A stretch of DNA of 52,392 nucleotides from an uncultured Rikenellaceae bacterium (GTDB lineage Bacteria; Bacteroidota; Bacteroidia; Bacteroidales; VadinHA17): positions 1 to 52,392 of the forward strand of contig CAZKTX010000002.1 of the NCBI GenBank assembly GCA_964555805.1, read 5' to 3'. Made by a program: the position numbers and the translations under genes. A model generated the notes under the pieces. The model ran no database searches and was not told where the DNA came from. It was given only the letters and a program-made list of their open reading frames with translations. Shown here one piece after another: positions 25,201 through 46,002 of this stretch (positions are counted from its first letter, which is position 1; each line of letters begins with the position of its first letter).

Positions 25201-25298
25201 CCAAGAAATGATACGCCTACTACTCCGAACAGGACAATCACAATTGCAAATACTGTTGCAAGAACCGGCCGGTTTATACTTGTCGATGATAGACTCAT
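22245..25298 (-). CDS. RND multidrug efflux permease (AcrB/HAE1 family)
   Basis: 1017 aa. The N-terminus MSLSSTSINRPVLATVFAIVIVLFG is followed by 12 TM segments and two large periplasmic loops. Confidence 0.95.
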   Translation of the reverse strand: MSLSSTSINRPVLATVFAIVIVLFGVVGVSFLGIREFPSVDPAIISVNTSYPGANSDVIETQITEPLEQSINGIPGVRTLTSVSSQGSSRITVEFELSVDLETAANDVRDKVSQAQRRLPRDCDPPTVTKADADANPILFLTVESNKRSLLQLSEIADLTLKEQLQTVSGVSAINIFGEKRYSMRLWIDPVKLAGYGLTPMDVRDAISRENVELPSGSIEGTTTQLTIRTLGLLTTPKQFNDLIIKQTGDQIVRFNDIGRAELGPEDIRGILKNNGVPMAMIAVIPQPGSNHIEIVDEIFRRLEYIKKDLPDDVRVNVNYDNTAYIRSSIKEVEDTIFIAFALVVVIIYFFLRSWRATIIPILVIPVSLVGSFFIMYLAGFTINVLTLLALVLAIGIVVDDAIVVMENIFVKVESGIPPMEAGLAGSKEIYFAIISTTITLVSVFFPIIFLEGITGRLFREFGMVMAGTVTISAFLALSLTPMVSTKLLRQEKSHTWIFRKTEPFFVGMNDWYRRNLDSFLKNRRFALVILVVSIGLIGLLWFSIPGEMAPLEDRSQITINTSAMEGATYEYMLAYVDDLAELVEEKVPERISYTTMVRGGTFANIRINLVTPDERSRSQQEIADQLSVDVRSKTKARAFVQQQSTFGQRRMGMPVQYVLQATDIEKLREVIPPFMNKVNESEILQMADVNLKFTKPELRIHINREKAITLGVSTQNIGQTLQLALSGQRFGYFFMNGKQYQILGELARENRNKPLDLKSLYVRSNKGEMIQFDNLVTLSEETAPPQLYRYNRFVAATVSAGLVPGKTISEGIAEMDRIADEVLDDSFRTALDGDSKDYLESSSSLMFAFMLALVLIFLVLAAQFESFKDPFIVMMTVPLALTGALIFMWYFDVTMNIFSQIGLIMLIGLVSKNGILLVEFANQRKAAGLNKVDAIKSASASRFRPILMTSLATIFGLLPLALGLGEGAQSRVAMGITVVGGMLFSTFLTLFVVPAIYTYISSEPKNNDDETKTAVA

Positions 25299-25316
25299 TA
25301 TTTAATTAAGTTTGTT

Positions 25317-26423
25317 TTAATTTTTAACAAGGGTGTCCAGCACTACAGGAAGGTTTTGCCTCAACTGAAGAATTCCTGAAGTAATAAGCGTATCACCGAA
25401 ATTAAGGCCGCTTGTGATCTGAACCTGAGATTCTGTTCTGAGTCCGATGCCCACCTTAATAACTTGTGCCTTGCCATTTCTGTAAACGTAAACCATTTCT
25501 CCCTCCATCTCAGGAGTTATCGCCTCTGTCGGTACAGAAATTGCATTTTCTATCTGTGAGAGAAGAAGTGTAACCGATGTGAAACGCCCTGGCTTCAGTT
25601 CCTCATTATTGTTCGGGTAAAGAGCACGGATTACAATTGTTCGTGTTGCTACATCCACCTGGGGATCGACAGCATAAACTTTCGCATTGTAAATATCATT
25701 TGAACCGTCCATGCTAAAAGTCACGGGATAGCCGATTTTGATCTGATTTGCATATCGTTCGGGAATTGCGAATTCAATTTTTATAGGCTTTATCTTTACA
25801 AGCCGTGCGATTTTTGTCGAGGGATTTGTATAACTGCCTTCACTTACATACCTGAGGCCAATTATACCATCAAACGGAGCACGAAGTTCAGTTTCTGATA
25901 TTCTGGCACCAACAAGGTTTATATCAGCCTGAATTGTCTGAAGCTCGGTTACAATCTGGTCATAACTTTCCTTGCTTATTGCGTCCTTGTCGAGGAGGCT
26001 GCGCTGCCTGAATTCCTTTTCCTCTGTAAGTTTCTTCTGAGCCTGCAGCTTTTCGAGCTGAGCCTGAAGGGGTCTGTCATTTATTTTTGCAAGAAGATCG
26101 CCTTTCCTGACCCGGGTACCTTCAGTAAAATTGATTCCCACAATCTTCCCTGATGTTTCAAATGCGAGTTCTACAGTCTCGTCAGGTTTTAATGTACCCG
26201 TGCTGACATAAAGGTCGCTCATCTGCTGAGGTTTTATAAGGTAGCCGCTTACGTTAAGAACTTGCCGCCCTGACCCTCCGGGCCTTCCTCCTGCAGTCAT
26301 TCCCGGTCCGGCAGGACCACCTGACTTAGATGAAAAGATTGGCTTTATTTTAGGGTAAAATACAATAACTGCGGCCACAATGATAAGCAGAATTGTTATG
26401 ATCAGTCTGTTTTTTTTCTTCAT
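25317..26423 (-). CDS. RND efflux periplasmic adaptor (membrane fusion protein)
   Basis: 368 aa with an N-terminal anchor, a lipoyl/hairpin region (GDLLAKINDRPLQAQLEKLQAQ) and a beta-barrel. It is the first gene of the MFP-RND-OMP operon. Confidence 0.9.
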   Translation of the reverse strand: MKKKNRLIITILLIIVAAVIVFYPKIKPIFSSKSGGPAGPGMTAGGRPGGSGRQVLNVSGYLIKPQQMSDLYVSTGTLKPDETVELAFETSGKIVGINFTEGTRVRKGDLLAKINDRPLQAQLEKLQAQKKLTEEKEFRQRSLLDKDAISKESYDQIVTELQTIQADINLVGARISETELRAPFDGIIGLRYVSEGSYTNPSTKIARLVKIKPIKIEFAIPERYANQIKIGYPVTFSMDGSNDIYNAKVYAVDPQVDVATRTIVIRALYPNNNEELKPGRFTSVTLLLSQIENAISVPTEAITPEMEGEMVYVYRNGKAQVIKVGIGLRTESQVQITSGLNFGDTLITSGILQLRQNLPVVLDTLVKN

Positions 26424-29423: not shown

Positions 29424-29807
29424 ATGGGCGTGTTACTGGATGAAAAAGACCTTGGCAAACTGATAGTTATAGGCGACAGGATACTGATAAAACCAAAGGT
29501 TCCGCAGTCCAAGACGAAGAGCGGATTGTATCTGCCTCCTGGTGTCAATGAGAATGAAAAAGTTCAGATAGGCTATGTTGTCAAGGTGGGGCCGGGTTAT
29601 CCGATACCTTCGGTAACCGATGCCGATGAACCATGGAAAGGCAGAACAGAGGAACCAAAATATGTTCCCCTTCAGCCCAAAGAGGGTGATCAGGCAGTCT
29701 ACCTTCAGAACAGCGCCATTGAAATAGAGTTCAATAAGGAGAAATATATAGTCGTTCCGCAGTCGGCAATTCTTCTGCTTTTAAGGGATGACGGACTTTT
29801 TGAATAA
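29424..29807 (+). CDS. GroES (Cpn10)-like family protein, long form
   Basis: 127 aa. IGDRILIKP...SGLYLP...GYVVKVGPG...EGDQAVY matches the Cpn10 fold pattern with an insertion. Confidence 0.55.
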   Translation: MGVLLDEKDLGKLIVIGDRILIKPKVPQSKTKSGLYLPPGVNENEKVQIGYVVKVGPGYPIPSVTDADEPWKGRTEEPKYVPLQPKEGDQAVYLQNSAIEIEFNKEKYIVVPQSAILLLLRDDGLFE

Positions 29808-29817
29808 AAACGGTCAA

Positions 29818-30204
29818 ATGGAAAATGAATACCTGAGTAAGAAAAAAATTCTGATTGTAGAGGATGACGTATCAAGCCGGCTCTACCTCAATAAAATTCT
29901 GGAAAAGACCGGTGCATCTCTTTTAAGCGCCTGTGATGGAAAAGAAGCTATTGAGACCGCCATGGCCAATCCAGATATCGACATAATACTTATGGATATT
30001 CAGCTACCCCTGATCGACGGCTACGGGGCAGCAAAGGTAATCAGGGAACTTAGAAAGGATGTAATTATAATAGCCCAGACCGCCTACAGCCTTCTTGGCG
30101 ACCGCGAGAAGATAATTGCCTCAGGATTTGATGATTATGTGGTCAAACCGATATTTCCCCAGACACTGATCGAGAAGCTGACAAAGTTTTCAGGGAAAAT
30201 CTGA
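29818..30204 (+). CDS. Stand-alone response-regulator receiver domain (CheY-like)
   Basis: KKILIVEDD...ILMDIQLP...AQTAY...KP carries the receiver Asp/Lys positions. The ORF-track start at 29788 overlaps the upstream gene, so ATG 29818 (MENEY) is the more plausible start. Confidence 0.8.
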   Translation: MENEYLSKKKILIVEDDVSSRLYLNKILEKTGASLLSACDGKEAIETAMANPDIDIILMDIQLPLIDGYGAAKVIRELRKDVIIIAQTAYSLLGDREKIIASGFDDYVVKPIFPQTLIEKLTKFSGKI

Positions 30205-34011: not shown

Positions 34012-35955
34012 ATGAAGAAAGGGCTGGTCATAATTGCTGCGTTCATAATGATTTTCTTCATTCCCGGGAATCAGTGCTATTCGCAAAAGTACCACACAAC
34101 TTCGGTCAAAGCCCTTAAGTTCTACAAGTCCGGAATGACTGCCTTTGACTATATTGATTACATAAATGCCGAAAGCTATTTCAATCAGGCGATTGAAACT
34201 GATGAGAACTTTTTTGAGGCATATATGATGCTGGGGGAACTGCTCTCGAAGCAAAAGAGATACGGAGAGGCAGCCAGGAATTTCCAGAAAGCTGTCAGAC
34301 TCGATTCTACAGCCTACATGCCTGTCTTTTTCAACATGGCTACAGCCGAGATGATGTCGGGCGATTACGAAAAAGCGCTTGTTCATTACAAGGTTTATCT
34401 GGCTCAGGAAAAAATATCAGAAAAAAATAAAGCACTTGCAGTCAGAAACATCATAAACTGTGAGTTTGCCATAGAAGCAGTAAAAAATCCCGTTCCATTC
34501 AGCCCCGAAACTGTTGGTGATGGCATAAACACAAGTCATGATGAATACTGGCCTTCCATTACTGCTGACGGACAGACTCTCATGTTTACCCGTCAGACAA
34601 AACCGGGTGAAAATGTGCTCAGAAGAGGTATCTCACAGGAGGATTTCTATGTCAGCATCATGCAGGAATCAGTCTGGAAAGATGCCGTTAATGCAGGCAG
34701 TCCCCTGAACACAAGTCAGAATGAGGGCGCCCAGAGTCTTTCTTCCGACGGCAATTACATGTATTTCACAGCATGTGACCGTTCCGGCGGATTAGGAAGC
34801 TGTGATATATTCTTTTCGGCTTTCAGCAATAATCGCTGGTCGATTCCTGTCAATCTTGGGAGTCCTGTCAATACATCCTTCTGGGAAAGCCAGCCCGCGA
34901 TCAATGCTGACGGCCGGATGTTGTTCTTCTCGAGCAACAGACCCGGTGGGAAAGGAGGGAAGGATCTCTATTTTTCGGTCTGGAAATCGAACGGCAAATG
35001 GAGCTTTCCCCGTAATATGGGTGATAAGGTGAACACTCCGGGTGACGAGATGTCGCCGTTTATACATTTTGACGGAAGGACTCTTTATTTTGCTTCTGAC
35101 GGTCGTCCCGGGATGGGCGGCTCAGATATTTATTTCACAAGGATGCTTGAAGATACAACCTGGACCGAACCTGTGAACCTGGGTTTTCCCATTAATACCT
35201 ACAATGATGAGATGGGTCTTACAATAGAATCAGGAGGGGAGAAGGCGTATTTTTCGTCCAGAAGAGACGACAAGGGAGGAAAGGATATTTTTTCTTTCAG
35301 GCTCCACGAGGCTGTGCAGCCCGATCCTGTTGCATATATAAAGGGAAAAGTTACCGACAGGTTAACAGGTCAGATGCTTGTTGCAGAATATGAGCTTGTA
35401 AATCTGACAACCGGAAAATCAGTCTTCAATAACCAGACAGATTCCAAAGGCAATTTCCTGGTGTGTCTGCCATCCGGAAACAATTACGGCCTCAATATAA
35501 GCAAAGATGGTTATCTATTCTACTCAGAGAATTTTATGCTGGAGGGAACGCATTCTGTACTGCAGCCCTTCATTAAGAATATATTGCTCAGCCCTTTCAG
35601 GGTAGGGGAAAAGATGCTTCTTTCCAATGTGTTCTTTGAAGTTGATTCATGGCAGCTTAAAAAGGAATCTGTTGCCGAACTTAACATGCTGTCGGATTTA
35701 TTGAAAAACAACAAGGAACTCAGGGTTGAAATAGGGGGATATACTGATGCCACAGGGTCGGAAGAGCATAATCTTGACCTTTCTGAAAAGAGAGCGCTTG
35801 CAGTAGTTGATTTTCTTGTGAACAGCGGCATCCCTAAGGAGAGGCTTACTTACCGGGGATACGGCAATGCCTCGCCAGTTGGAGATAATGTCACATTCGA
35901 AGGACGAAAGCTTAACAGGCGAACTGAGGTTCAGATAACAGAGTATCAAAAATAG
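34012..35955 (+). CDS. TPR / PD40 (TolB-like beta-propeller) / CarboxypepD_reg / OmpA-domain envelope protein
   Basis: The true start is MKKGLVIIAAFIMIFF at 34012, since the track start at 33823 overlaps queE. Repeated PD40 motifs occur (E..P.I..DG..L.F.S.R.GG.GG.D). The C-terminal OmpA peptidoglycan-binding motif is GYTD..G....N..LS..RA. Confidence 0.85.
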   Translation: MKKGLVIIAAFIMIFFIPGNQCYSQKYHTTSVKALKFYKSGMTAFDYIDYINAESYFNQAIETDENFFEAYMMLGELLSKQKRYGEAARNFQKAVRLDSTAYMPVFFNMATAEMMSGDYEKALVHYKVYLAQEKISEKNKALAVRNIINCEFAIEAVKNPVPFSPETVGDGINTSHDEYWPSITADGQTLMFTRQTKPGENVLRRGISQEDFYVSIMQESVWKDAVNAGSPLNTSQNEGAQSLSSDGNYMYFTACDRSGGLGSCDIFFSAFSNNRWSIPVNLGSPVNTSFWESQPAINADGRMLFFSSNRPGGKGGKDLYFSVWKSNGKWSFPRNMGDKVNTPGDEMSPFIHFDGRTLYFASDGRPGMGGSDIYFTRMLEDTTWTEPVNLGFPINTYNDEMGLTIESGGEKAYFSSRRDDKGGKDIFSFRLHEAVQPDPVAYIKGKVTDRLTGQMLVAEYELVNLTTGKSVFNNQTDSKGNFLVCLPSGNNYGLNISKDGYLFYSENFMLEGTHSVLQPFIKNILLSPFRVGEKMLLSNVFFEVDSWQLKKESVAELNMLSDLLKNNKELRVEIGGYTDATGSEEHNLDLSEKRALAVVDFLVNSGIPKERLTYRGYGNASPVGDNVTFEGRKLNRRTEVQITEYQK

Positions 35956-36032: not shown

Positions 36033-36869
36033 TCAGATAGGACTCATAGTATTGGAAAATTCGTTAATTGAGTTATCGTGGTTTTCAACTGACGCGACCG
36101 GGATGGCAAAGTAGATGGAAGAACCTGTCCTTCCGTTGTTTTCGATCCAGATCGATCCGTCCATCATCCGTATCAGTTTTCGCACAAGGGCCAGGCTAAC
36201 GGCTGTATGTATGTCGTCGTACCTGGCAAGGGATTCTTTTAAATCAATGCTCTGTAGGAATTCCCTGCATTTAAGGTAACCCTGCCCCGAATCAGTAATG
36301 CAGAACCTGATTTTGCCTTCTGTAATGCTATAACTGACTTTAATATAACCTGATTCCGTGTTGCTCAGAGCTATCTGGAATAAATTGCGAATTACTCTTG
36401 TAACCCTGTTCGCATCAAATAGGCAGTCAGGGCTATTGCAGACCACATTTTCTGAAACAAGCAGAAGATGCTTGTACCTTTCCTTCTTTAGTATTTCCCT
36501 GAACTCTGAAAACAGATCCGCGAACATCTTACCAGTATGAACGACTCCAGGCTCCGAAATTGAATTGCCAGCATCAATTATGGCGGAATCCAGAAAATTG
36601 TCGAAAAGGGAAATAATCTGTTCGCACGAATTATATATATGATTGCCGAACTCCTCCCTCTCGGGTTCACAGTATTCCGATTTGTTCATCATGAAAGAGA
36701 AGGCAACTATTGCGTTCATCCGGGTCCTCATCTCCCGCGATAATTCTGTCAGTACCGCGGAGGAACCGGATACCGGTTCAATTAACTGGTCAACGCTTCC
36801 GGCCTGATCCCTTTTCCCCGGAACCTGGTCGCCGGAATCACCCTTTATATGTCCAAACAGGTCGAACAT
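36033..36869 (-). CDS. Soluble histidine-kinase-like protein (HisKA-like + HATPase_c) with a substituted phospho-acceptor site; probable pseudokinase
   Basis: 278 aa with no TM or sensor domain. The H-box position reads LSREMRTRMNAI where the canonical sequence is SHE(L/I)RTP(L/M)NAI, so His is replaced by Arg. The N-box (IRNLFQIALSNT) and G1 (ITDSGQG) are recognisable. The G2 glycines are missing (TAVSLALV). Confidence 0.7.
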   Translation of the reverse strand: MFDLFGHIKGDSGDQVPGKRDQAGSVDQLIEPVSGSSAVLTELSREMRTRMNAIVAFSFMMNKSEYCEPEREEFGNHIYNSCEQIISLFDNFLDSAIIDAGNSISEPGVVHTGKMFADLFSEFREILKKERYKHLLLVSENVVCNSPDCLFDANRVTRVIRNLFQIALSNTESGYIKVSYSITEGKIRFCITDSGQGYLKCREFLQSIDLKESLARYDDIHTAVSLALVRKLIRMMDGSIWIENNGRTGSSIYFAIPVASVENHDNSINEFSNTMSPI

Positions 36870-36896
36870 TTTATCCAGTAAAGGTTAAATCAACAA

Positions 36897-37646
36897 TTAT
36901 TTCAGGTATCTGAGAATTTTCTTTGCTTGCTTTCTGTAGATTGTCTTTGAATCTTCGATTGCAGCAAGCTGATCCAAGGCCTTTGCTTTTTCACCCGTCT
37001 TTATGTAGCACAGGGCCAGATACCATTGCGCATGATCAATATAGAAGTTGTTATTATCTTGTATTACTTTTGAAAAGGAGCCGCTTGCTTCAGGATAATT
37101 CTGGTTTTCGAAGTTCGAAATGCCGTTAAGCAGTTCGGTATGCATATCGCCCGGATTGTCTTCAAGTACCCTGGAGAAGTATATAGCTGCATTCCTGTAA
37201 TCCCTGACGTTGTAGTATTCCACTGCAAGACGGAAATTATCTGAATTTGAAGCCATGTTTGCAGAACGGGATACTGTAGCAACTTCATAGGGCTTGTAGT
37301 ATCGGCTTATAATCTCGTCGCTGTCAGGCCTGCCTCTTGAAAGCAATGCTATGCTTCCAATTATTACAAGGCTGGTTATTATTGCTGCGTACCTGATATT
37401 GACAGGCTTTTTGGGTTTTACTTCAGGCACTGGTTCCTGGCGCCGTTTCTCAATAGCGTTCAGTTTGTTGCGAAGATTCATAATATCCCGGTCCTTCAGA
37501 ATCATATCGGTCCGGTTACGCAGTTCAACCTCACGGCGAAGCTTCTCATTGCCTTCCAGTTCTTTCCTGAACCATTCCTTTTCAGCTTCATCCATTTCAC
37601 CGGCATTATACCGCTCGATAAAGTATGAAAAATCAATTGTTTTCAT
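36897..37646 (-). CDS. Single-pass membrane protein with anti-sigma-like N-terminus and periplasmic TPR domain
   Basis: 249 aa. The N-terminal FIERYNAGEMDEAEKEWFRKELEGNEKLRREVE resembles anti-sigma N-domains but lacks the Zn ligands. A TM helix follows (IRYAAIITSLVIIGSIALL), and the C-terminus carries TPR-like repeats (AVEYYNVRDYRNAAIYFSRVLE..., AQWYLALCYIKTGEKAKA). Confidence 0.6.
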   Translation of the reverse strand: MKTIDFSYFIERYNAGEMDEAEKEWFRKELEGNEKLRREVELRNRTDMILKDRDIMNLRNKLNAIEKRRQEPVPEVKPKKPVNIRYAAIITSLVIIGSIALLSRGRPDSDEIISRYYKPYEVATVSRSANMASNSDNFRLAVEYYNVRDYRNAAIYFSRVLEDNPGDMHTELLNGISNFENQNYPEASGSFSKVIQDNNNFYIDHAQWYLALCYIKTGEKAKALDQLAAIEDSKTIYRKQAKKILRYLK

Positions 37647-37953
37647 CTTGATATAATTTTGGTTTTAAGTTATTATGGAACAACACATGCTCAAAAACTA
37701 TATACATATGTGCAAGTACCTGATACATGTGGGTTTCATATCAATATTAAATTTGCAAATACATTCAATCATCATCAATTCGGACCGATACCACGTGCGG
37801 ACCTGCTGCACGAGCCATAGCATTCCGAATGCAATTCTACAGCCGGGAATAATATTCCGGAAGCCCGGCTGAAATGTCAGTCGCCAAAAAGAAAACTGGT
37901 GCCGTTTTAAAACACTGTTTTCGCTAAAGCAGTATCCGGCAGCTATTTTTTTA

Positions 37954-38088
37954 TCAGATCTTGACAGGAGGTAATGAAGGTTTCAGGATGGGGTCGGCAT
38001 CACCACCTTTTACACAAATCATTTCTTCAACTGTCAGAGCATACACATCAAGATTCGCATCAGAGTTTTTTACGTTCAGGGTTTTCAT
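37954..38088 (-). CDS. 44-aa precursor peptide with a double-glycine (bacteriocin-type) leader, GG-Bacteroidales natural-product-precursor-like
   Basis: My own translation of the minus strand gives MKTLNVKNSDANLDVYALTVEEMICVKGG|DADPILKPSLPPVKI*. The leader fits the L(S/T)xxEMxx(V/I)KGG pattern cleaved by C39 peptidase domains. A C39-ABC exporter is encoded 4 kb away. The leader upstream of the ATG is A-rich. The ORF is too short for the supplied track. Confidence 0.7.
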   Translation of the reverse strand: MKTLNVKNSDANLDVYALTVEEMICVKGGDADPILKPSLPPVKI

Positions 38089-38332
38089 AGTGCTGATTTT
38101 TTCATTAAATATTATTTCGGATAATTTGCATTTTCAAGCCAAATTCTATGTAACATGTCGGTATACCCCGTTTTGTGACACTGAAAAATGAACTATTTTT
38201 AAAATATTTTTTATATTCAAGATAATCAACTACATACAAAAAGGGAAAAAATGACAATCAGACCGTCATTATAACATTTTTTGTAAACTTGCGTTTTGGC
38301 ACGGGGAAGCGACTAATTAATCATCGACCTTG

Positions 38333-41300
38333 ATGTTTTCAGGCATCTTCATAAAGTCCTTATTGCTGTTCTTCATTTCTGCTGCCAGTTTTTGCCAGGA
38401 AAATGCAATCTCAGATTCCGGTAATGAACTGGCTGGACTGAATGAAGCCTTTCATGCAACAATTGCTGCCGGTGACACTGCCGGGTCGAGGGATCTGCTC
38501 TATTCAATTCTGAAGATTCTCAGGGAGGAACGGTTTGACAATATTACAGTTTCCAATTCTCAGTATTATATAGGGGTATATTATCTTCTTAACGGCAGGA
38601 ACAAGGAAGCTGTAAGCTGGCTGGGATCGTCCGTCTCGTTACGTGAGAAGATGAAGACTGTCGACGACGTGTATGCAAAAAGTCTGTTTAATCTGGCTCT
38701 GGCACACTCCAGGCGCGGAGATTTCAGGAAGATGGAAGAAAGCATCCTTCAATCTATTGATGCTGAGAAGACCCTGCATGGAGAAAATAGTCCCGAACTC
38801 CTGGATGGATATTCTGCATTGACGGGGGCCTGCATCAGCCTTAAGGATTACAGCCGAGCCATAGAATTCGGCAACATGGCGCTTGATCTGATCGGGGTGA
38901 ACAAGACTGAGCATATTAAGGAAATGGCGATCCTTAATGTGAATATCGGGATCAGCCATGCCTTTCTGTCCGACTATGCAAAGGCTGTAATGTTTCTTGA
39001 GAGGGCAGAATCGTTGTATCGGTCCAATCCCATTCCAAAGGATGAAAATTATATTAACCTGCTTAACAGTCTTGCGTCAAATTACCACTTCCTCGGACAG
39101 TCTGAAAAATCCGAAAGGTATTTCAACAAAGGCATCAGCATGATAAACTATGCGAATTCAGATCTGTCGCTTAATTTTCTGAACAGCTTTGCAATAAATA
39201 TGGGAAACGCAGGAGAAGCGTACAGGGGGGAGAAACTCCTGGCCGTCTCACTTGCAAAAGCCGGTAAGGTCTTCGGTCAAAGCTCAAGGGAGTACTGCGA
39301 GGTACTTAAGAACTACGCCGAATATCTCAGAAATTTCAAACTGGATATTGGCAGATCCATTGTATTATTCGAACAGTGCCTTGAATTAATTAAGGTCAAC
39401 AGTGAGGATTCTGCTTTGAAAGAATCGGTTCTGCTGGGGTATGCCCTTGCTCTTTCAGAAAAAGGGGAGAATGAAAAAGCTCTTGGAATCATTTCAGACT
39501 TACTTTTTTCAGGCAAAGATGGGACAGACTCAGGTTCAGGTCTTAAAAGCCCCGGACCGGGCCTGCTTGTGCCAGACCAATGGTCGTTAAAGCTGCTTCA
39601 GGCAAGATACAGAATACTCCATGGGATCTATGGAGAGAAGGCAGATATGAGCTACCTTCTGGCGGCAGCAGAAACGTCCGAACTGATTGTTTCCCTTATT
39701 GAGAAGGTGAGAATTAGTATAAGCGAGGAAGAAAGCAGGCTTGTTCTCGGAGACAGGTTCAGGGATTCCTATCTGCATGCTATCCGCGATCTTGACCTGT
39801 GCTACAGTAAAACCGGCGACATCAGTTATCTGAAAAAGGCTTTTGAGTATTCCGAGAAGTCAAAGGTTGCGGGCCTGCTGACTTCAACGAGGGAACTCAG
39901 GGCCACAGAGTTTCATATCCCCGAAGAAACAGCAGAACTTGAGCGCGGGCTGAAAATGGAAATAGGCTACTATGAAGCCAGAATAAGTGAAGAAGAAACA
40001 AAGAAGGAAAGTGATGACTCCCTTATAGAGGAATGGAAGGAACTTCTCCTGTCCGCAACTCAGAAAAGAGACTCTCTGATAGCTGTTTTCGAACAGATGT
40101 ATCCCGGTTATTATCTTATCAAATACAATACTGAGGTTATTTCGCCGGAACAAATTCCTTCTATTTCCGGCCGGAACACAAACTACCTTAACTATATAGT
40201 GTCCGACAGCCTTCTCCATATTTTTGTTGCAAACAGGAAGTATCTCCGGCTTGTTACTATAAACATCGATTCTTCCTTTTTCAACAATATCAGAGAGTTC
40301 CGGGCTCTTCTGTCGGAGCCTGACAATAATGCCAGGTCAGGGTTTGACAGATATCTTTCAACGGGCTACAGTCTCTACGCGACAGTCCTGGAGCCAGTGA
40401 AACAGTATCTGATTTCTAACAGGCTGCTGATCTCCCCCGATAACATTCTTTCGTATATACCATTCGAAGCTCTGCCAGTAAGCACTGAAGCCGGCAGCAA
40501 TGCAATGTTCAGCGAAATTCAGTATCTTCTGAAAGATTACAGCGTTTCATATACATATTCGGCAACTATGCTTGCTGAATCCGTCGGCAACGATCAGAGC
40601 TTCTCAAACTCTGCTGTTGCATTTGCTCCGAGCTATAATGGCAGGATTGATGTTGACTCACTTATGAAAGCCAGGCAATCAGGTGTTTCATCACTTTACG
40701 ACCTTAAATTTGCACGGGCTGAGGCTGAGTATGTTGCAGAACTGACCGGAGGCAGGCTTTATCTCGACAATAACGCAAGAGAATCGGTTTTTAAAACCGT
40801 GGCAGCGGAATATGATATAATACATCTTGCAATGCATACACTGCTAAACGACAAGGACCCGATGCATTCAAAGATGATTTTTTCGCAGGGTAACGATTCT
40901 CCGGAGGACGGCAACCTTAATACCTGGGAGGTTTATGGTATTCCGCTTAAGGCGAAAATGGTTATTCTAAGTTCCTGCAACACCGGAAGTGGTTCTTTGC
41001 ATTCAGGCGAGGGCATCCTGAGCCTTGCCAGGGGCTTCGTTTACTCCGGATCAAGGTCAGTTGTTATGTCAATGTGGGAAATAGAAGACAGATCGGGTGC
41101 CGAAATAGTAAATAAATACTACAGGAACATCAGGCATGGCGTATCAAAGAGCAATGCATTGCGAAAGGCAAGGATTGACTATCTGAGAAATTCCGACATG
41201 TTGAGATCTCACCCTTATTTCTGGTCATCGCTGGTTATTTATGGCAACAATACTCCGATTTATTATTCCTTATGGCTGAAGATTTCTGCAGGACTTCTTA

Positions 41301-41350
41301 TACTTCTTATTCCGGCAATACTGATCCTGATCTATAGTAAATCCAGATAA
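38333..41350 (+). CDS. Exported, C-terminally membrane-anchored TPR-CHAT protein (caspase-fold protease)
   Basis: About 1005 aa with a signal peptide MFSGIFIKSLLLFFISAASFC|QENA and approx. 600 aa of TPR-like repeats. The C-terminal CHAT domain has an intact His/Cys dyad (IIHLAMHT ... MVILSSCNTGSG). A terminal TM follows (ISAGLLILLIPAILILIYSKSR). The ATG at 38333 directly follows the track's TTG at 38330. Confidence 0.85.
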   Translation: MFSGIFIKSLLLFFISAASFCQENAISDSGNELAGLNEAFHATIAAGDTAGSRDLLYSILKILREERFDNITVSNSQYYIGVYYLLNGRNKEAVSWLGSSVSLREKMKTVDDVYAKSLFNLALAHSRRGDFRKMEESILQSIDAEKTLHGENSPELLDGYSALTGACISLKDYSRAIEFGNMALDLIGVNKTEHIKEMAILNVNIGISHAFLSDYAKAVMFLERAESLYRSNPIPKDENYINLLNSLASNYHFLGQSEKSERYFNKGISMINYANSDLSLNFLNSFAINMGNAGEAYRGEKLLAVSLAKAGKVFGQSSREYCEVLKNYAEYLRNFKLDIGRSIVLFEQCLELIKVNSEDSALKESVLLGYALALSEKGENEKALGIISDLLFSGKDGTDSGSGLKSPGPGLLVPDQWSLKLLQARYRILHGIYGEKADMSYLLAAAETSELIVSLIEKVRISISEEESRLVLGDRFRDSYLHAIRDLDLCYSKTGDISYLKKAFEYSEKSKVAGLLTSTRELRATEFHIPEETAELERGLKMEIGYYEARISEEETKKESDDSLIEEWKELLLSATQKRDSLIAVFEQMYPGYYLIKYNTEVISPEQIPSISGRNTNYLNYIVSDSLLHIFVANRKYLRLVTINIDSSFFNNIREFRALLSEPDNNARSGFDRYLSTGYSLYATVLEPVKQYLISNRLLISPDNILSYIPFEALPVSTEAGSNAMFSEIQYLLKDYSVSYTYSATMLAESVGNDQSFSNSAVAFAPSYNGRIDVDSLMKARQSGVSSLYDLKFARAEAEYVAELTGGRLYLDNNARESVFKTVAAEYDIIHLAMHTLLNDKDPMHSKMIFSQGNDSPEDGNLNTWEVYGIPLKAKMVILSSCNTGSGSLHSGEGILSLARGFVYSGSRSVVMSMWEIEDRSGAEIVNKYYRNIRHGVSKSNALRKARIDYLRNSDMLRSHPYFWSSLVIYGNNTPIYYSLWLKISAGLLILLIPAILILIYSKSR

Positions 41351-41892
41351 TCCTTGTATTCAGGGTCGGATTTAATAAGCTCCATAAGAGCTTCTTTACT
41401 CATATATTTTTTTCTCCTGGCATATGATTCACTCTTGAAATTCATTAAGGAGGCGATTTCCGGGTATGATAATCCTTCTGAAAACAGCGTCAGGATTTTC
41501 TGTGCATCATTGCTCAGCTTTCTGAAAGCCCGGCTAACTATAGTCTCAAGAACCAGATTCGGATCATCACCTTCTTCATTATCAGGGAAGTCACCGTCAA
41601 TACCAGTGTTTCTCATCTTCTTCCTCAGCTGTACCTTCCAGACATTCCTTGCAATACCGAAGAAATAACCTTTCAGATCGGTCGTGAGGCTGAAACCATC
41701 TGCTGTGACCTGACGATAAAGCGTTATGATGGATTCCTGGAAAACATCAGGGATATCTGATTCTGATCCGCTGTTTTTTAATACATGATACCTTACAGTC
41801 TCAAGATAATTATCATAGAGCCAGTTCAGTATCTGATCATCCTGTCGCCGGATTCCATCAATTATTGCACTATCTGAGATTTTTCGGAACAA
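41332..41892 (-). CDS. Sigma-70 family (ECF-like) RNA polymerase sigma factor
   Basis: The region 2 pattern is DVFQESIITLYR...GYFFGIARNVW and the region 4 HTH is LSYPEIASLMNFKSESYARRKKYMSKEAL. There is no in-frame ATG near the N-terminus, so the candidate starts are TTG at 41892 (MFRKISDSAIIDGIRR) or TTG at 41931 as in the track. Confidence 0.75.
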   Translation of the reverse strand: MFRKISDSAIIDGIRRQDDQILNWLYDNYLETVRYHVLKNSGSESDIPDVFQESIITLYRQVTADGFSLTTDLKGYFFGIARNVWKVQLRKKMRNTGIDGDFPDNEEGDDPNLVLETIVSRAFRKLSNDAQKILTLFSEGLSYPEIASLMNFKSESYARRKKYMSKEALMELIKSDPEYKDYLDLL

Positions 41893-41920
41893 TTGCTGAT
41901 TTTTCGCCTGGATAAATTGA

Positions 41921-41928
41921 CAAATATA
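41921..41928 (-). promoter_or_regulatory. Candidate -7 box (TATATTTG) for the sigma-factor gene
   Basis: The minus-strand sequence TATATTTG matches TAnnTTTG exactly and lies 28 nt upstream of the TTG at 41892. No TTTG -33 element occurs at the consensus spacing. If this box is real, the 41931 start would be non-coding. Confidence 0.35.
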
Positions 41929-42052
41929 CAATTTCCCGCGACCTGCAGTAGCGGACTGTCAGCGGGCAAACTCGCAAATTTACAATTTAAGGCATTTATG
42001 ATAAATAATAAATATATTTACTCCTCTCAAATAAACGCTCAGGCACCGAAAA

Positions 42053-44239
42053 ATGTTATTTCCCTTTGTAAAACAATATGATGCGATGGATTGTGGTCCG
42101 GCGTGCCTCAAGATGATTGCGGCATATCACGGGAAGAATTTCACAATCGATTACCTGCGAAAAAAGTGCTTCATCACAAAAGAGGGAGTATCATTCCTTG
42201 GATTGTCGGAAGCTGCAGATTCTGTAGGGTTCAGAACGATGGGGGTCAAAATACCTTTTGGAGTGCTTCAGGAAAAGATTGCTCTGCCATGTGTGGTTCA
42301 CTGGCGCCAGAAACACTTTGTTGTTGTTTACAGGATCAGAAAGGGGAAAATTTATATTGCTGACCCTGCGACCGGGCTTGTCACTTTAACGAAGGATGAA
42401 TTCGAAAGGAACTGGGCCAATACATTTGTCGACGGAAAACCTGCCGGCCTGGCGCTGACTGTTGAACCGACTCCCTCGCTCTATAACATCGATGATCAGA
42501 CGGAGAAGACAGGAGGCTTCAGGTTTCTTATGAAATACTTCAGACTGTACAGGAAGTATTTCGGTCAGCTTCTGCTGGGGCTTCTTATCGGCAGCTGTAT
42601 CCAGCTTATTTTCCCCTTCCTTACTCAGTCTATTATCGACATCGGAATCAACAATAACGACCTGGGATTTATTTATTTAATACTCTTTGCCCAACTGGCA
42701 CTCATAGTTGGCCGGATGTCGGTTGAGTTTATCCGCGGATGGCTGCTCCTTCACATCGGATCGAGAGTCAATGTCGCTGTTGTTTCAGGCTTCCTTAATA
42801 AGCTGATGTCACTTCCCGTTGCCTTTTTTGATACACGGCTGACGGGAGACATTATTCAGCGAATTGAAGACAACAACAGGATTGAAGATTTTCTTACATC
42901 AGCCAGTCTCAGTATATTGTTTTCCTTTATGAATCTTATAGTGTTCGCTATTGTGCTTGCTGCTTTCAGTCTGAAAATATTCCTGATTTTCCTGACGGGG
43001 ACATGTCTTTACATTTTGTGGGTTTCTCTTTTTCTTAAACCAAGGGCGAAGCTGGATGATATCCGTTTCAGGGAAATGTCAGTTTCAAGCTCGAAGCTTA
43101 TAAACATTATAAACGGGATGCAGGAGATAAAACTGACCCAAAGCGAGACAAGCAAGCGCTGGGACTGGGAGGGCCATCAGGCATCCCTGTTCGCACTTAA
43201 GGTCAAGGGTCTCGGGCTTATTCAATATCAGTCGGCAGGCGCCACACTAGTAAATGAAGTTATGAATATTTTCATAACAATATTTGCTGCTACTGCTGTC
43301 CTCAAGGGACAAATGACGCTGGGTATGATGCTTGCCGTTCAGTTTATTATAGGACAGCTCAATATTCCTGTAAACCAGATTATAGGCTTCTTTCGAATGT
43401 CGCAGGATGCAAGGATCAGTCTCAACCGTCTCGCCGAGGTGCATAATATGGAGGATGAGGAACCATCGCCCGTGGACAAGCTTCAGCGGATGCCGGATGA
43501 CAGGACAATCAGGATACATAATCTTTCGTTTCAGTATGAAGGGCCCCGTTCTCCCTATGCCCTGAAAGACATCAGTCTTGATATTGAGCCTGGCCGGACA
43601 ACAGCAATTGTAGGCACAAGCGGAAGCGGAAAGACAACTTTGCTGAAGATGCTTCTTGGGTTTTATCAACCTGTTGACGGGAATATAGCTGTTGGCGGAA
43701 CAAGTCTGTCAGACATCAGTTTACGGTTCTGGAGAAAAAATACAGGAGCTGTAATGCAGGACGGATTCCTCTTTCCCGACACAATAGCAGGCAATATAGC
43801 CCCGGGGGCTGAGGTAATTGACGAGGCCAGACTTCGTGATGCGGTTGAAACAGCCAATATAAGGGAATTCATTGAATCTCTGCCGCTGGGATACAACACG
43901 AAGATCGGTGCAAATGGTCATGGTCTCAGTCAGGGTCAGAAACAGAGGCTGCTGATAGCCAGAGTAGTTTACAAGGATCCCGAGATAGTCCTTTTCGACG
44001 AAGCCACCAACTCACTTGATGCAAATACTGAAAAAGCCATAGTTGAAAACCTTTCAGGTTTCTTCAGAAATAAAACGGTTATTATTGTCGCCCATCGTTT
44101 AAGCACGGTCAGGAATGCAGACAAAATAGTTGTTCTGGAAGGAGGCCGGATCATTGAAACAGGAAATCACCAGGAACTTGTCAAAAATATGGGTGCTTAT
44201 TTTAACCTTGTAAAAAACCAGCTGGAACTGGGGAATTGA
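42053..44239 (+). CDS. Peptidase-C39-domain ABC transporter (double-glycine leader processing and export)
   Basis: 728 aa. The N-terminal C39 domain has the catalytic Cys (YDAMDCGPACL), His (HWRQKHFVVVY) and Asp context (IADPA). It has a 6-TM ABC membrane domain, Walker A GTSGSGKTT, signature LSQGQKQR and Walker B IVLFDEAT. Confidence 0.95.
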   Translation: MLFPFVKQYDAMDCGPACLKMIAAYHGKNFTIDYLRKKCFITKEGVSFLGLSEAADSVGFRTMGVKIPFGVLQEKIALPCVVHWRQKHFVVVYRIRKGKIYIADPATGLVTLTKDEFERNWANTFVDGKPAGLALTVEPTPSLYNIDDQTEKTGGFRFLMKYFRLYRKYFGQLLLGLLIGSCIQLIFPFLTQSIIDIGINNNDLGFIYLILFAQLALIVGRMSVEFIRGWLLLHIGSRVNVAVVSGFLNKLMSLPVAFFDTRLTGDIIQRIEDNNRIEDFLTSASLSILFSFMNLIVFAIVLAAFSLKIFLIFLTGTCLYILWVSLFLKPRAKLDDIRFREMSVSSSKLINIINGMQEIKLTQSETSKRWDWEGHQASLFALKVKGLGLIQYQSAGATLVNEVMNIFITIFAATAVLKGQMTLGMMLAVQFIIGQLNIPVNQIIGFFRMSQDARISLNRLAEVHNMEDEEPSPVDKLQRMPDDRTIRIHNLSFQYEGPRSPYALKDISLDIEPGRTTAIVGTSGSGKTTLLKMLLGFYQPVDGNIAVGGTSLSDISLRFWRKNTGAVMQDGFLFPDTIAGNIAPGAEVIDEARLRDAVETANIREFIESLPLGYNTKIGANGHGLSQGQKQRLLIARVVYKDPEIVLFDEATNSLDANTEKAIVENLSGFFRNKTVIIVAHRLSTVRNADKIVVLEGGRIIETGNHQELVKNMGAYFNLVKNQLELGN

Positions 44240-44249
44240 GAAACAGATC

Positions 44250-45578
44250 ATGGAAGATCAAGAAAAGAATGAGATAGTATATTCAGAACCTGTCAGGGAT
44301 ATAATGGGAGCTGTGCCCGGAGGGATACTGAGATGGGGTACGGCAATTATTCTTGCTGTACTGGTTCTTTTTATTTTCTTCCTGTGGCTCGTGAAGTATC
44401 CCGACAGGGTTCCCGCACCAGTTGAAATAACTACAGTAAATCCGCCTGCCATACTTGTTTCAAAAATATCCGGAAGGATTAAGAATCTTTACGTGAATGA
44501 CAGGGATGAGGTTGCTGAGGATCAGCTCCTTGCAGTAATGGAAACTGCAGCTTCGATTGGAGAGATAAACCGTCTTAAATCAATTGTTGACACTGTAAGT
44601 GACCCGGGAGAGCTGCAGCTGAAATCACTCCCTGCTTTTACCGAACTGGGAGAACTGCAGAGTTACTGGAGTTCATTCCTCAAAAGCCTGTCTGATTACA
44701 ATAATTACAATGTCAACGACTTTTATGGGAATAAGATCCTTTCTCTTACTGATGAAATAAACGCTATCCTGGCTTATATCGGAAGGATCAGGGTTAAAGA
44801 GAATTTGTATTCAGAGAACCAGGTGATTGAGACAAGAAAGTTCAGAAGGGATTCGTTACTTTTTTCAGAAGGAGTCTACTCGGAAAGTGAGCTCGAGAAA
44901 TCACGGCAGGCTCTTATCCTGCTTAATATCGAACTTCAGCAGGTTCGGCTCGATCATTCCCAGAAATCAATAGAACTGGCTGAAAAAAGGCAATTGCTTC
45001 AGGACTACAGGATAAAGCGAATAGAGGATCATGAGAAGTACTATTCTGTTCTTAGTGAATCTTTTATGAATCTCAGGGCTCAGTTAAGGATATGGGAAAA
45101 TACATATTTGCTTATATCCCCTGTGTCGGGGACAGTAACGCTTACAAGGTTCTGGAGCGAAAATCAGACGGTTGAAAGGGATGAGCCTGTTTTGAGCGTT
45201 ATTCCCAGGGAAACCGGCGACTATATCGGCAGGATCAGCCTCAAAATGAACCGTTCCGGAAAGGTCAAACCAGGTCAGGATGTCCATATCAAATTAAGCG
45301 GGTATCCTTATCTGGAGTATGGGATGGTAAGGGGAGTTGTAAAATCCAGGTCGCTGGTTCCTTCTGCCGATTCATATATAATAGAGATATCCCTGCCTCA
45401 GGGCCTGACAACCCTGTATGGCAGGGATCTTGATTTTTCGCAAAACATGCAGGGTACCGCGGAAATTATAACTGAGGACCTTCGTTTGCTTGAGAAAATT
45501 CTTAATCCTGTCAGGCATCTTGTTTCCCGGAACCGGAGCCGGGATATTTCCCTGAATAAGGCTCATAGTCATCCCTGA
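44250..45578 (+). CDS. HlyD-family secretion adaptor protein
   Basis: 442 aa with an N-terminal TM (WGTAIILAVLVLFIFFLWLV), a lipoyl-like segment, a long coiled coil and a C-terminal beta-barrel. It starts 10 nt after the ABC gene. Confidence 0.85.
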   Translation: MEDQEKNEIVYSEPVRDIMGAVPGGILRWGTAIILAVLVLFIFFLWLVKYPDRVPAPVEITTVNPPAILVSKISGRIKNLYVNDRDEVAEDQLLAVMETAASIGEINRLKSIVDTVSDPGELQLKSLPAFTELGELQSYWSSFLKSLSDYNNYNVNDFYGNKILSLTDEINAILAYIGRIRVKENLYSENQVIETRKFRRDSLLFSEGVYSESELEKSRQALILLNIELQQVRLDHSQKSIELAEKRQLLQDYRIKRIEDHEKYYSVLSESFMNLRAQLRIWENTYLLISPVSGTVTLTRFWSENQTVERDEPVLSVIPRETGDYIGRISLKMNRSGKVKPGQDVHIKLSGYPYLEYGMVRGVVKSRSLVPSADSYIIEISLPQGLTTLYGRDLDFSQNMQGTAEIITEDLRLLEKILNPVRHLVSRNRSRDISLNKAHSHP

Positions 45579-45714
45579 CCGAATGCAACGAGCCGCTAGC
45601 AGCCGGTTTCTGAACAGACTGCTTCTCTTTTCCTTTTTTGTAATACTTTCGGTAGAGGCTTATACCAACTGCTGCAATAACCACAATTGCAAAGAATGCA
45701 TCATTGCTTTTCAT
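45511..45714 (-). CDS. Hypothetical 67-aa single-TM protein (weak call)
   Basis: MKSNDAFFAIVVIAAVGISLYRKYYKKGKEK... has one clear TM followed by a basic patch. It overlaps the 3' end of the HlyD gene convergently by 68 nt, and I recognise no family. Confidence 0.3.
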   Translation of the reverse strand: MKSNDAFFAIVVIAAVGISLYRKYYKKGKEKQSVQKPAASGSLHSVRDDYEPYSGKYPGSGSGKQDA

Positions 45715-46002
45715 CTTTTCCTGATTTGAAAATTCCGGATAATCCGATTTTACAATTACTGAATTCAAATATATCAATTTTTTAAGCAGACAATAATCAT
45801 GTTTTAAACATACTGCAAACACTTCCGCTAACCCTTAATATTTCATCAATTACTGCATTTGAGCTTTATCAGCGTCTATTTCTTATTTTTCCATAATAGT
45901 TTGAGTTTTAATAAATAATTCAATATTTTCGTAGTCTGAAAAAATCATGGGTCACCATGGTATGGAGTATTATTGAAGATATTGAACCTTAAAGGATTGG
46001 AT

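Follow-up and report, generated by a model that had tools for sequence, protein, structure and literature searches.

What does the gene for a small exported peptide do among genes for a sigma factor, a tetratricopeptide repeat (TPR) membrane protein and a caspase-like protease? This question is raised by a cluster of genes at positions 36033 to 45714 of a 52,392-nucleotide stretch of DNA (here called the window) from an uncultured Rikenellaceae bacterium (Bacteroidales; VadinHA17). The conserved cluster suggests an undescribed peptide-sensing gene switch. We put the probability at roughly 40% that it is a split, DdvA-like system in which a protease gates a sigma factor of the extracytoplasmic function (ECF) type and a dedicated exported peptide has been recruited as the signal.

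We searched all cluster proteins of the window against Pfam and NCBIfam and scanned them for transmembrane (TM) segments and topology by hydropathy. The cluster genes were scored with phmmer, or with family hidden Markov models (HMMs) built from the window proteins, in 4 context look-ups, 80 species-representative genomes and 80 metagenome contigs, the last retrieved with an alignment of distant representatives of the CHAT protease. Gene-presence counts refer throughout to loci whose sequence covers the region in question; individual loci carry L numbers.

Full-length relatives of the CHAT protein number in the hundreds among uncultured Bacteroidales, and about 160 loci from these organisms share one gene order down to about 35% CHAT identity. 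In every sufficiently long locus, this order is kinase-like gene (−), TPR membrane protein gene (−), peptide gene (−), CHAT gene (+), sigma gene (−), C39-ABC exporter gene (+), HlyD adaptor gene (+) and a small open reading frame (ORF) (−). The sigma gene is present in all 146 covered loci, the TPR membrane protein gene in all 108 and the C39-ABC gene in all 100. Peptide orthologues were detected in 72 of the 80 genome loci, the other 8 being without coverage or missed by the regular expression, and the peptide was recovered in all loci that were re-checked closely. Across ~100 to 150 loci, neither the peptide and exporter genes nor the trio of sigma factor, TPR membrane protein and CHAT protease is ever lost separately. 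The flanks are equally well kept, with NamZ, a 5′-nucleotidase, queE and an OmpA/PorE-like gene on one side and DUF349, pyrG and yidC on the other. An alignment of distant CHAT sequences, run against metagenomes, returned the same lineage with its synteny unbroken.

A preliminary description of this DNA had listed seven genes with no modification enzyme and no recognizable immunity gene among them. All seven ORFs were found at its coordinates, the Pfam and NCBIfam searches upheld each domain call, and every cluster ORF could be assigned, with no maturase and no recognizable immunity gene inside the cluster. The pairing of precursor and modifying enzyme that marks ribosomally synthesized and posttranslationally modified peptides (RiPPs) is accordingly not found here; a neighboring 209-aa radical-SAM protein scores best against QueE models, below their cutoffs. 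No Rfam family matched the region at E ≤ 1. Membership in a defense system was excluded because PADLOC returned no match for the cluster beyond generic ATPase similarity. The same description had taken the cluster for an inserted accessory module, and this part does not hold: the genes keep a fixed position between the same flanks in ~160 loci and their GC content is unremarkable, which rules out an inserted island. Judged from these comparisons, the locus is a constant feature, passed on vertically, of a deep Bacteroidales lineage. Nor are the genes neighbors by chance in a single genome, since the cluster is kept in every related locus examined.

The sigma factor, a candidate anti-sigma factor and a TPR-CHAT protease

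The sigma factor (186 aa; 41332 to 41892, minus strand) has no TM segment by hydropathy and is classed as ECF-like, as first proposed, by a TIGR02937 score of 46.9 bits against a cutoff of 42.9; Sigma70_r2 scores above its cutoff (27.3 bits) and Sigma70_r4_2 just below (23 bits). Its start codon is a TTG at 41890 to 41892 that nearly all species of the lineage keep (LF[RK][RK]ISD...), so the shorter of two gene models, the one given in the preliminary description, is right. A longer, 199-aa ORF is not on record and was rejected, the conserved TTG being the true start. Conservation of such a weak start codon hints that the sigma factor is deliberately translated at a low level. Just upstream of the start (approximately 41917 to 41936, minus strand), the footprinting alignment contains the block GGAAAT(a/t)(c/g)TATATTTGTCAA at the same position in 68 of 81 sequences. 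Within it lies TAnnTTTG, the Bacteroidetes −7 consensus; the block suggests a housekeeping-type promoter for the sigma gene. The ABC gene, too, has an upstream block that resembles a −7 box.

The candidate anti-sigma factor is a single-pass membrane protein of 249 aa (36897 to 37646, minus strand) whose only profile match is to TPRs, in its C-terminal half. Its predicted layout is a helical cytoplasmic N-terminal domain (residues 1 to 70), a TM segment (84 to 102), a linker (104 to 134) and a periplasmic domain of three TPRs (135 to 249). The N-terminal domain is nearly invariant, its first 40 residues most of all, and AlphaFold2 (AF2) places three helices there, with a predicted local distance difference test (pLDDT) score of 83 to 89 for residues 11 to 40. 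The linker is conserved, partly disordered and modeled with low confidence.

Five very distant CHAT homologues, the only ones to have left the lineage, sit in unrelated contexts, and two of these contexts bear on how the 249-aa protein and the sigma factor may be paired. Snuella sedimenti (Flavobacteriaceae; L168) has a sigma factor of 193 aa whose full length aligns with that of the window (28% identity, E 1e-21). Its gene is followed after 5 bp by that of a 244-aa protein with the architecture of the 249-aa protein, with the motif FEAYLTNELSQEARINFETRL (window FIERYNAGEMDEAEKEWFRKEL) in the N-terminal part, a single TM segment and a TPR domain that has WYLAL at its end (E 3e-6). A divergent operon adjoining this pair holds a TPR-CHAT protein with a signal segment and a C-terminal TM segment. 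In L172, two TPR-CHAT genes are followed by a sigma homologue (33% identity, E 3e-15) and, 19 bp after it, by the gene for a 248-aa protein that has the window-like N-terminal motif and TM segment together with a non-TPR periplasmic domain. The motif Y..GE[ML]...E...F...L is common to the N-terminal domain of the 249-aa protein and to both of these partners. A constant sigma-proximal N-terminal domain, combined with differing sensor domains and encoded directly after the sigma gene, is the pattern expected of a sigma/anti-sigma pair. These two pairs are the best evidence, two examples only, that the 249-aa protein may bind the window sigma factor as its anti-sigma factor, and the same two examples suggest that TPR-CHAT proteases belong with this sigma family. 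Support independent of the syntenic block covers three genes only, those for the sigma factor, the 249-aa type of protein and the TPR-CHAT protein.

The TPR-CHAT protein itself (~1005 aa; 38333 to 41350, plus strand; TPR_12 and CHAT, E 1.6e-54) carries the N-terminal signal-like segment expected from the export proposed for it in the preliminary description and, in addition, a C-terminal TM segment at about residues 976 to 1001. The bulk of this caspase-like protease is thus predicted to be periplasmic and anchored in the membrane. H832, H836 and C883 are invariant, and the candidate dyad H836-C883 is kept in close and distant homologues. A sequence search against solved structures matched the TPR part alone, so that a structural search was needed to show how the protein is related to others. 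Foldseek, run with the AF2 model, placed the craspase protease Csx29 first (7xsr_C, E 2e-10) and the transmembrane anti-sigma factor DdvA next (8rw5, E 5e-10; also 8rot), with separase further down the list. By this model, the best matches are TPR-CHAT proteins for which control of sigma factors is known or has been proposed.

At their converging 3′ ends, the CHAT and sigma genes share 19 bp (41332 to 41350), a spacing that is conserved (median, −27 bp in 154 loci). This overlap could couple the expression of the two genes through transcriptional interference.

DdvA has a periplasmic TPR-CHAT region that, as proposed, would cleave the juxtamembrane linker of the same protein ahead of RseP; the cleavage is unproven and the signal unknown, and DdvA-like proteins have been reported only from Myxococcota and one Comamonas species (PMC11506125). 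Like DdvA and its sigma factor DdvS, the window combines a sigma factor of ECF type with a sigma-proximal cytoplasmic domain at the N terminus, a single TM segment and a TPR-CHAT region that carries a His/Cys dyad and, in the window protein by prediction, lies in the periplasm. In both, the site-1 cut would be made by CHAT in a flexible juxtamembrane linker, with RseP acting next. Whereas DdvA holds its anti-sigma domain (ASD), TM segment and TPR-CHAT region in one polypeptide, the window splits them between the 249-aa and ~1005-aa proteins. The window also differs in having no zinc-binding ASD motif, no sequence similarity beyond the Pfam CHAT domain, no genes for CRISPR or a cyclic oligonucleotide-based antiphage signaling system (CBASS) in the cluster, and a dedicated exported peptide with its exporter. 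The locus looks like a split DdvA, with the anti-sigma part and the TPR-CHAT part separate and facing the same compartment.

Cleavage has been demonstrated for Csx29, which in the type III-E craspase cuts Csx30, an inhibitor of CASP-sigma/RpoE (PMC10028731, PMC9729208). The likeness lies in a TPR-CHAT protease that cuts a sigma inhibitor and so releases an ECF-like sigma factor, as is proposed for the window. Craspase, however, is cytoplasmic and activated by RNA via Cas7-11, whereas a periplasmic, membrane-anchored protease is predicted for the window; in the window and the loci, as far as annotated, no Cas7-11, CRISPR array, Csx30 or Csx31 was found. The DegS-RseA-RseP-sigma-E envelope stress pathway (summarized in PMC10028731) offers a third parallel, with regulated intramembrane proteolysis of a single-pass anti-sigma factor and activation of the site-1 protease by C-terminal peptides that its peptide-binding domain takes up. 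As a PDZ serine protease, DegS detects the C termini of misfolded outer membrane proteins, whereas the window candidates are a TPR-CHAT cysteine protease and a purpose-made peptide.

The exported peptide, its promoter-like element and its exporter

The peptide gene (37954 to 38088, minus strand) encodes a 44-aa precursor with a double-glycine (GG)-type leader (MKTLN...EEMICVKGG) and a 15-aa core, DADPILKPSLPPVKI, which is free of Cys, as the preliminary description had it. No other ORF in the 52-kb window is leader-like, and the peptide ORF matches no curated Pfam or NCBIfam family; the leader weakly resembles TIGR04149, a Bacteroidetes GG-leader family (21.6 bits against a 25-bit cutoff). In all loci the gene and the CHAT gene diverge, with the peptide gene ~230 bp upstream. 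The double-glycine cleavage motif (in the window ...EEMICVKGG followed by D) is invariant in 72 of 72 orthologues, within a leader conserved as …LSxEEMIxV[RK]GG. The core varies from 12 to 24 aa in length, with Cys nearly always missing. In most of the lineage, acidic residues are followed by (E/D)P-I-x-[KL]-P-x-x-P-P-[VI]-x-[IL]-COOH, and the cores of deep branches end in ...DPT[KR]PP[VI]IIE[IL]. The Pro-rich C terminus (PP[VI]x[IL]-COOH) is conserved, Pro at −5 being invariant (72/72) and the last residue always Ile, Leu or Val (Ile in 65 of 72). A short, conserved, Pro-rich sequence with a fixed C terminus is unlike a diversifying bacteriocin and would fit the ligand of a conserved receptor.

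In L045, five identical copies of the peptide gene stand in tandem (L045:8707-9637; 196-bp period, units 99% identical), and L077 has two diverged copies. Such tandem copies suggest selection for high peptide dosage.

About 65 nucleotides (nt) upstream of the peptide ATG lies a bipartite promoter-like or operator element, GTGTCACAAAAC-N8-CCGACATGT (38153 to 38181, minus strand). Its columns are at least 90% conserved in a footprinting alignment of ~70 species. The spacer keeps one length in 64 of 65 sequences while its letters vary, and the element stands at differing distances from the ATG. The window contains it once, with none expected by chance, and in the loci it is confined to the position upstream of the peptide gene. 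It contains a TGTC...GACA dyad and does not match the Bacteroidetes −33/−7 housekeeping consensus. We regard it as a candidate target of the cluster sigma factor, on which the peptide promoter would then depend. An ECF-type promoter shared by the cluster genes was also considered and rejected: by footprinting, the element belongs to the peptide gene only, and the sigma and ABC genes carry housekeeping-like −7 boxes.

Another block, GAATTACCCTGAATTAG, is conserved in the 5′ region of the window peptide gene (~38110 to 38135, minus strand). It is loosely matched by a motif of L172, AAAAGGTAACCC(N1-2)GTTA(A)GAT, which lies upstream of the sigma gene and of the first TPR-CHAT gene there (L172:4940-4975 and L172:13500-13530). 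The two may represent a promoter or operator shared by this sigma family.

Downstream of the peptide gene, an inverted repeat (GAAAAC...GTTTTC) followed by a T-run makes a terminator-like hairpin (37891 to 37922, minus strand), in a region that the alignment shows as a family-conserved CTGTTTT..CGAAAACAG block. As read from the sequence, this hairpin would separate the peptide transcript from the operon of the TPR and kinase-like genes. Distinct from it is an 8-bp GC-rich inverted repeat, CAGCCGGG...CCCGGCTG, at 37840 to 37871 between the peptide and TPR genes, where inner pairs extend the repeat.

The exporter is an ATP-binding cassette (ABC) protein of 728 aa (42053 to 44239, plus strand) in which a C39 peptidase (Peptidase_C39, 127.7 bits) is joined to transmembrane and nucleotide-binding domains (ABC_membrane and ABC_tran). 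It matches TIGR01193 and TIGR03796 strongly, under their equivalog cutoffs. The C39 motifs Q8, C14, HFVVV and ADP can be read in its sequence. A C39 domain with its catalytic residues, fused to the transporter domains and accompanied by a small GG-leader precursor in the cluster, is what defines a peptidase-containing ABC transporter (PCAT). The HlyD-type periplasmic adaptor (442 aa, one N-terminal TM segment; 44250 to 45578, plus strand; TIGR01843 at 69 bits, below the cutoff) is encoded in 98 of 100 loci and missing from a deep branch that includes L152, L157, L158 and L167, so that it is not essential to the module. The ABC protein of this HlyD-less branch is longer (768 aa, e.g., L167:13637-15943). 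The ABC-HlyD exporter comes without an outer membrane channel of its own. The nearest candidate belongs to a complete resistance-nodulation-division (RND) efflux operon at 20948 to 26423 (minus strand), which encodes an HlyD_D23 adaptor, an AcrB-type pump and an OEP/TolC-like outer membrane factor.

The proposed circuit and its rivals

In the switch that we propose, one unit would consist of the sigma factor, the 249-aa anti-sigma-like protein and the separate, membrane-anchored TPR-CHAT protease, and the other of the dedicated linear peptide, the C39-ABC exporter and the HlyD adaptor. The precursor would be cut after Gly-Gly and exported, and one of the two periplasmic TPR domains would bind the Pro-rich peptide of 12 to 24 aa. 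Binding would either activate the CHAT protease or expose its substrate, and CHAT would then make the site-1 cut in the juxtamembrane linker (residues 104 to 134) of the anti-sigma-like protein. The sigma factor would be freed by a site-2 protease with its gene elsewhere and, after it, by cytoplasmic proteases, and would transcribe its regulon, plausibly including the peptide gene via the bipartite element, with positive feedback as the result. By prediction, the two TPR domains and CHAT all lie on the periplasmic side, where an exported peptide could reach them. The most specific form of this proposal, in which the unmodified Pro-rich peptide is the natural activator of the periplasmic TPR-CHAT protease and the cut in the separate anti-sigma factor releases the ECF sigma factor in cell-cell or autocrine signaling, is tentative, and we judge it somewhat unlikely as it stands.

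Several observations weigh against a peptide-gated switch, and the first group concerns the sigma control that it presupposes. The label "anti-sigma-like," which the 249-aa protein had been given before, derives from its architecture and finds no match by profile or fold: residues 1 to 82 match no Pfam family, the family profile matches no sequence in the PDB outside the TPR domain, and Foldseek with the AF2 model gave no significant match, the best (E ~0.2) being to peptide-binding TPR domains of the CHIP/Hop type. Both models are of modest confidence, with an overall pLDDT of 65.6 for the 249-aa protein and 67.8 for the CHAT protein. Cognate anti-sigma genes of ECF sigma factors are characteristically co-transcribed directly downstream, as in L168 and L172; in the window, the gene for the 249-aa protein lies 3.7 kb from the sigma gene in a separate transcription unit. 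Three of the five out-of-lineage CHAT contexts (S41 peptidases, ShlB-CHASE2 and a cyanobacterial one) are without a sigma gene. The bipartite element is off the usual −35/−10 spacing of ECF promoters, and it was not found near the sigma and CHAT genes of L168 and L172.

The second group concerns the link of the peptide to the sigma factor, and here the main rival takes its strength. In this rival, an old block of synteny has kept two unrelated modules together: envelope signaling by the sigma factor, the anti-sigma-like protein and CHAT on another periplasmic cue, and separate export of a GG peptide. Counted junction by junction, the whole queE..yidC block is rigid and the cluster junctions are no stabler than those of the equally conserved housekeeping flanks, so that synteny by itself is no proof of functional coupling, and the link between peptide, exporter and sigma system could be frozen synteny. 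The arrangement recurs in ~160 loci and the trio in two non-syntenic contexts, but the flanks recur too, and neither the L168 nor the L172 trio comes with a GG peptide or a C39-ABC gene. The sigma link of the peptide and exporter consequently comes down to their conserved, interleaved order. The peptide gene shares no promoter motif with the sigma, ABC or TPR genes, upstream of which the bipartite element is absent in the family loci. Mirror-tree and partial-correlation analyses of the peptide core against each protein domain gave no specific peptide-TPR signal; the flanking genes correlate as strongly, and the mirror-tree analysis cannot discriminate between the readings. Three points speak for a single system all the same. 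The genes are interleaved, with the peptide gene between those for the anti-sigma-like protein and CHAT and the sigma gene between CHAT and ABC; neither set is lost separately, whereas the kinase-like and HlyD genes are; and the short, Pro-rich core with its fixed C terminus suits a ligand of the co-located periplasmic TPR domains. We hold the frozen-neighbor explanation to be a serious one, though rather doubtful on balance.

The remaining readings are less likely than this main rival. A GG leader, a C39-ABC transporter and an HlyD adaptor are the classic export set of class II bacteriocins and microcins, the leaders weakly resemble those of class IIb bacteriocins and of TIGR04149 RiPP precursors, the C39-ABC protein is competent by its motifs, and one genome carries five identical tandem peptide genes. 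The peptide could on these grounds be an unmodified, class II-like bacteriocin or other antagonistic peptide whose production is regulated by, or whose producer is protected by, the sigma, anti-sigma and CHAT proteins. Yet in contrast to such PCAT and RiPP loci, the cluster has neither maturase nor immunity gene, and no immunity-like small membrane protein is co-transcribed with the peptide. The core is short, Pro-rich and acidic at its N terminus, neither amphipathic nor Gly-rich; its motif is conserved over ~150 species instead of diversifying, and the locus is core and vertically inherited, not strain variable. A bacteriocin is accordingly an improbable explanation.

Similarly improbable is that the peptide, instead of activating CHAT as a ligand, serves it as a substrate or inhibits it as a securin-like pseudo-substrate (a pseudo-substrate keeps the TPR-CHAT relative separase inactive [PMC11506125], and a conserved acidic stretch in the core leads into Asp-Pro, but a peptide-CHAT interaction is without direct support), or that the kinase-like protein, in place of the sigma factor, controls the peptide promoter through an orphan response regulator, for which the TGTC...GACA dyad offers a possible regulator-binding site and a single-domain response regulator is encoded ~6 kb away, but against which stand a kinase-like gene missing from 5 of 108 loci and a His-less protein in 20 of 65, with the promoter element conserved in those genomes.

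Accessory genes, related circuits and significance

The kinase-like gene (36033 to 36869, minus strand) follows the TPR gene at a distance of 27 bp on the same strand and is present in 103 of 108 loci. Its product (278 aa) is soluble, without a TM segment by hydropathy, and combines a dimerization and histidine phosphotransfer (DHp) region (HisKA at 25.0 bits, just under the 26.9 cutoff) with HATPase_c (40.1 bits, above the cutoff). It had been described as a kinase without the phospho-acceptor His. This is true of the window protein, whose H-box reads S-R-E-M-R-T with Arg45 at the phospho-acceptor position, but it is a derived trait of one subclade: among 65 sequences, 45 keep the His and 20 (the window and 19 of 64 orthologues) have Arg. 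The G2 box of the ATP lid is degenerate family-wide, so the window protein has neither the H-box His nor the intact ATP lid of a sensor histidine kinase. The gene is accessory and dispensable, not a core part of the switch. Some 6 kb from it, at 29424 to 30204 (plus strand), a Cpn10-like gene overlaps the gene for a single-domain CheY-like response regulator (138 aa), a pair that is also kept in L003 and L004; this regulator could be an orphan partner of the kinase-like protein.

At the other end of the cluster, a small ORF (45511 to 45717, minus strand) overlaps the 3′ end of the HlyD gene and encodes a conserved membrane protein of ~57 to 68 aa with one TM segment and a Lys/Gly-rich tail. 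It is called as a gene in L001 to L004, occurs in 90 of 100 loci and matched no family in the profile searches; whether it belongs to the module is uncertain. The OmpA-like flank gene that always adjoins the cluster (34012 to 35955, plus strand) encodes a TPR, PD40 and OmpA protein whose best matches, both below the cutoff, are to the CHU_0125 outer membrane integrity and PorE type IX secretion families.

In the streptococcal ComC/ComAB/ComDE/ComX and Blp systems, a GG peptide is trimmed and exported by a C39-ABC transporter with an accessory protein and, from outside the cell, eventually turns on an alternative sigma factor, with positive feedback. The circuit proposed for the window is alike in its GG peptide, C39-ABC export, alternative sigma factor and feedback on the peptide gene. 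Com and Blp sense their peptides with a membrane histidine kinase and a LytTR regulator, whereas the kinase-like protein of the window is soluble, dispensable and His-less and the cluster encodes no response regulator. The candidate sensor is instead the set of TPR, anti-sigma and CHAT proteins in a Gram-negative envelope.

How much of this is new? Every part of the cluster belongs to a known family, and CalpL/T/S is another system in which a protease gates a sigma factor. CHAT-linked sigma control is itself known or proposed, from DdvA/DdvS (PMC11506125) and from Csx29, Csx30 and CASP-sigma (PMC10028731). The preliminary description had stated that no described system has this architecture; we likewise found no description of it in the literature, and the statement holds for the architecture and not for protease-gated sigma control as such. 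What is new is the split organization, the presence in Bacteroidota and the strictly conserved association with an unmodified exported peptide, possibly the missing signal.

TPR-CHAT-gated sigma factors have been described only recently. In the naturally split system, the protease, its presumed substrate and the candidate ligand, a 15-mer open to synthesis, are separate, small and genetically tractable, which makes the idea of CHAT as a site-1 protease directly testable in vitro. To our knowledge, peptide pheromones are essentially unknown in Bacteroidota. If the peptide is the signal, the locus would constitute a peptide pheromone circuit in this phylum, present in several hundred uncultured Bacteroidales species of digesters, peat, sediments and soils. 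The signal of a CHAT-gated sigma switch would thereby be defined for the first time, and the quorum-sensing architecture would be a new one in a Gram-negative phylum. Even if the peptide is unrelated, the trio that recurs in Bacteroidota would extend the DdvA concept well beyond Myxococcota.

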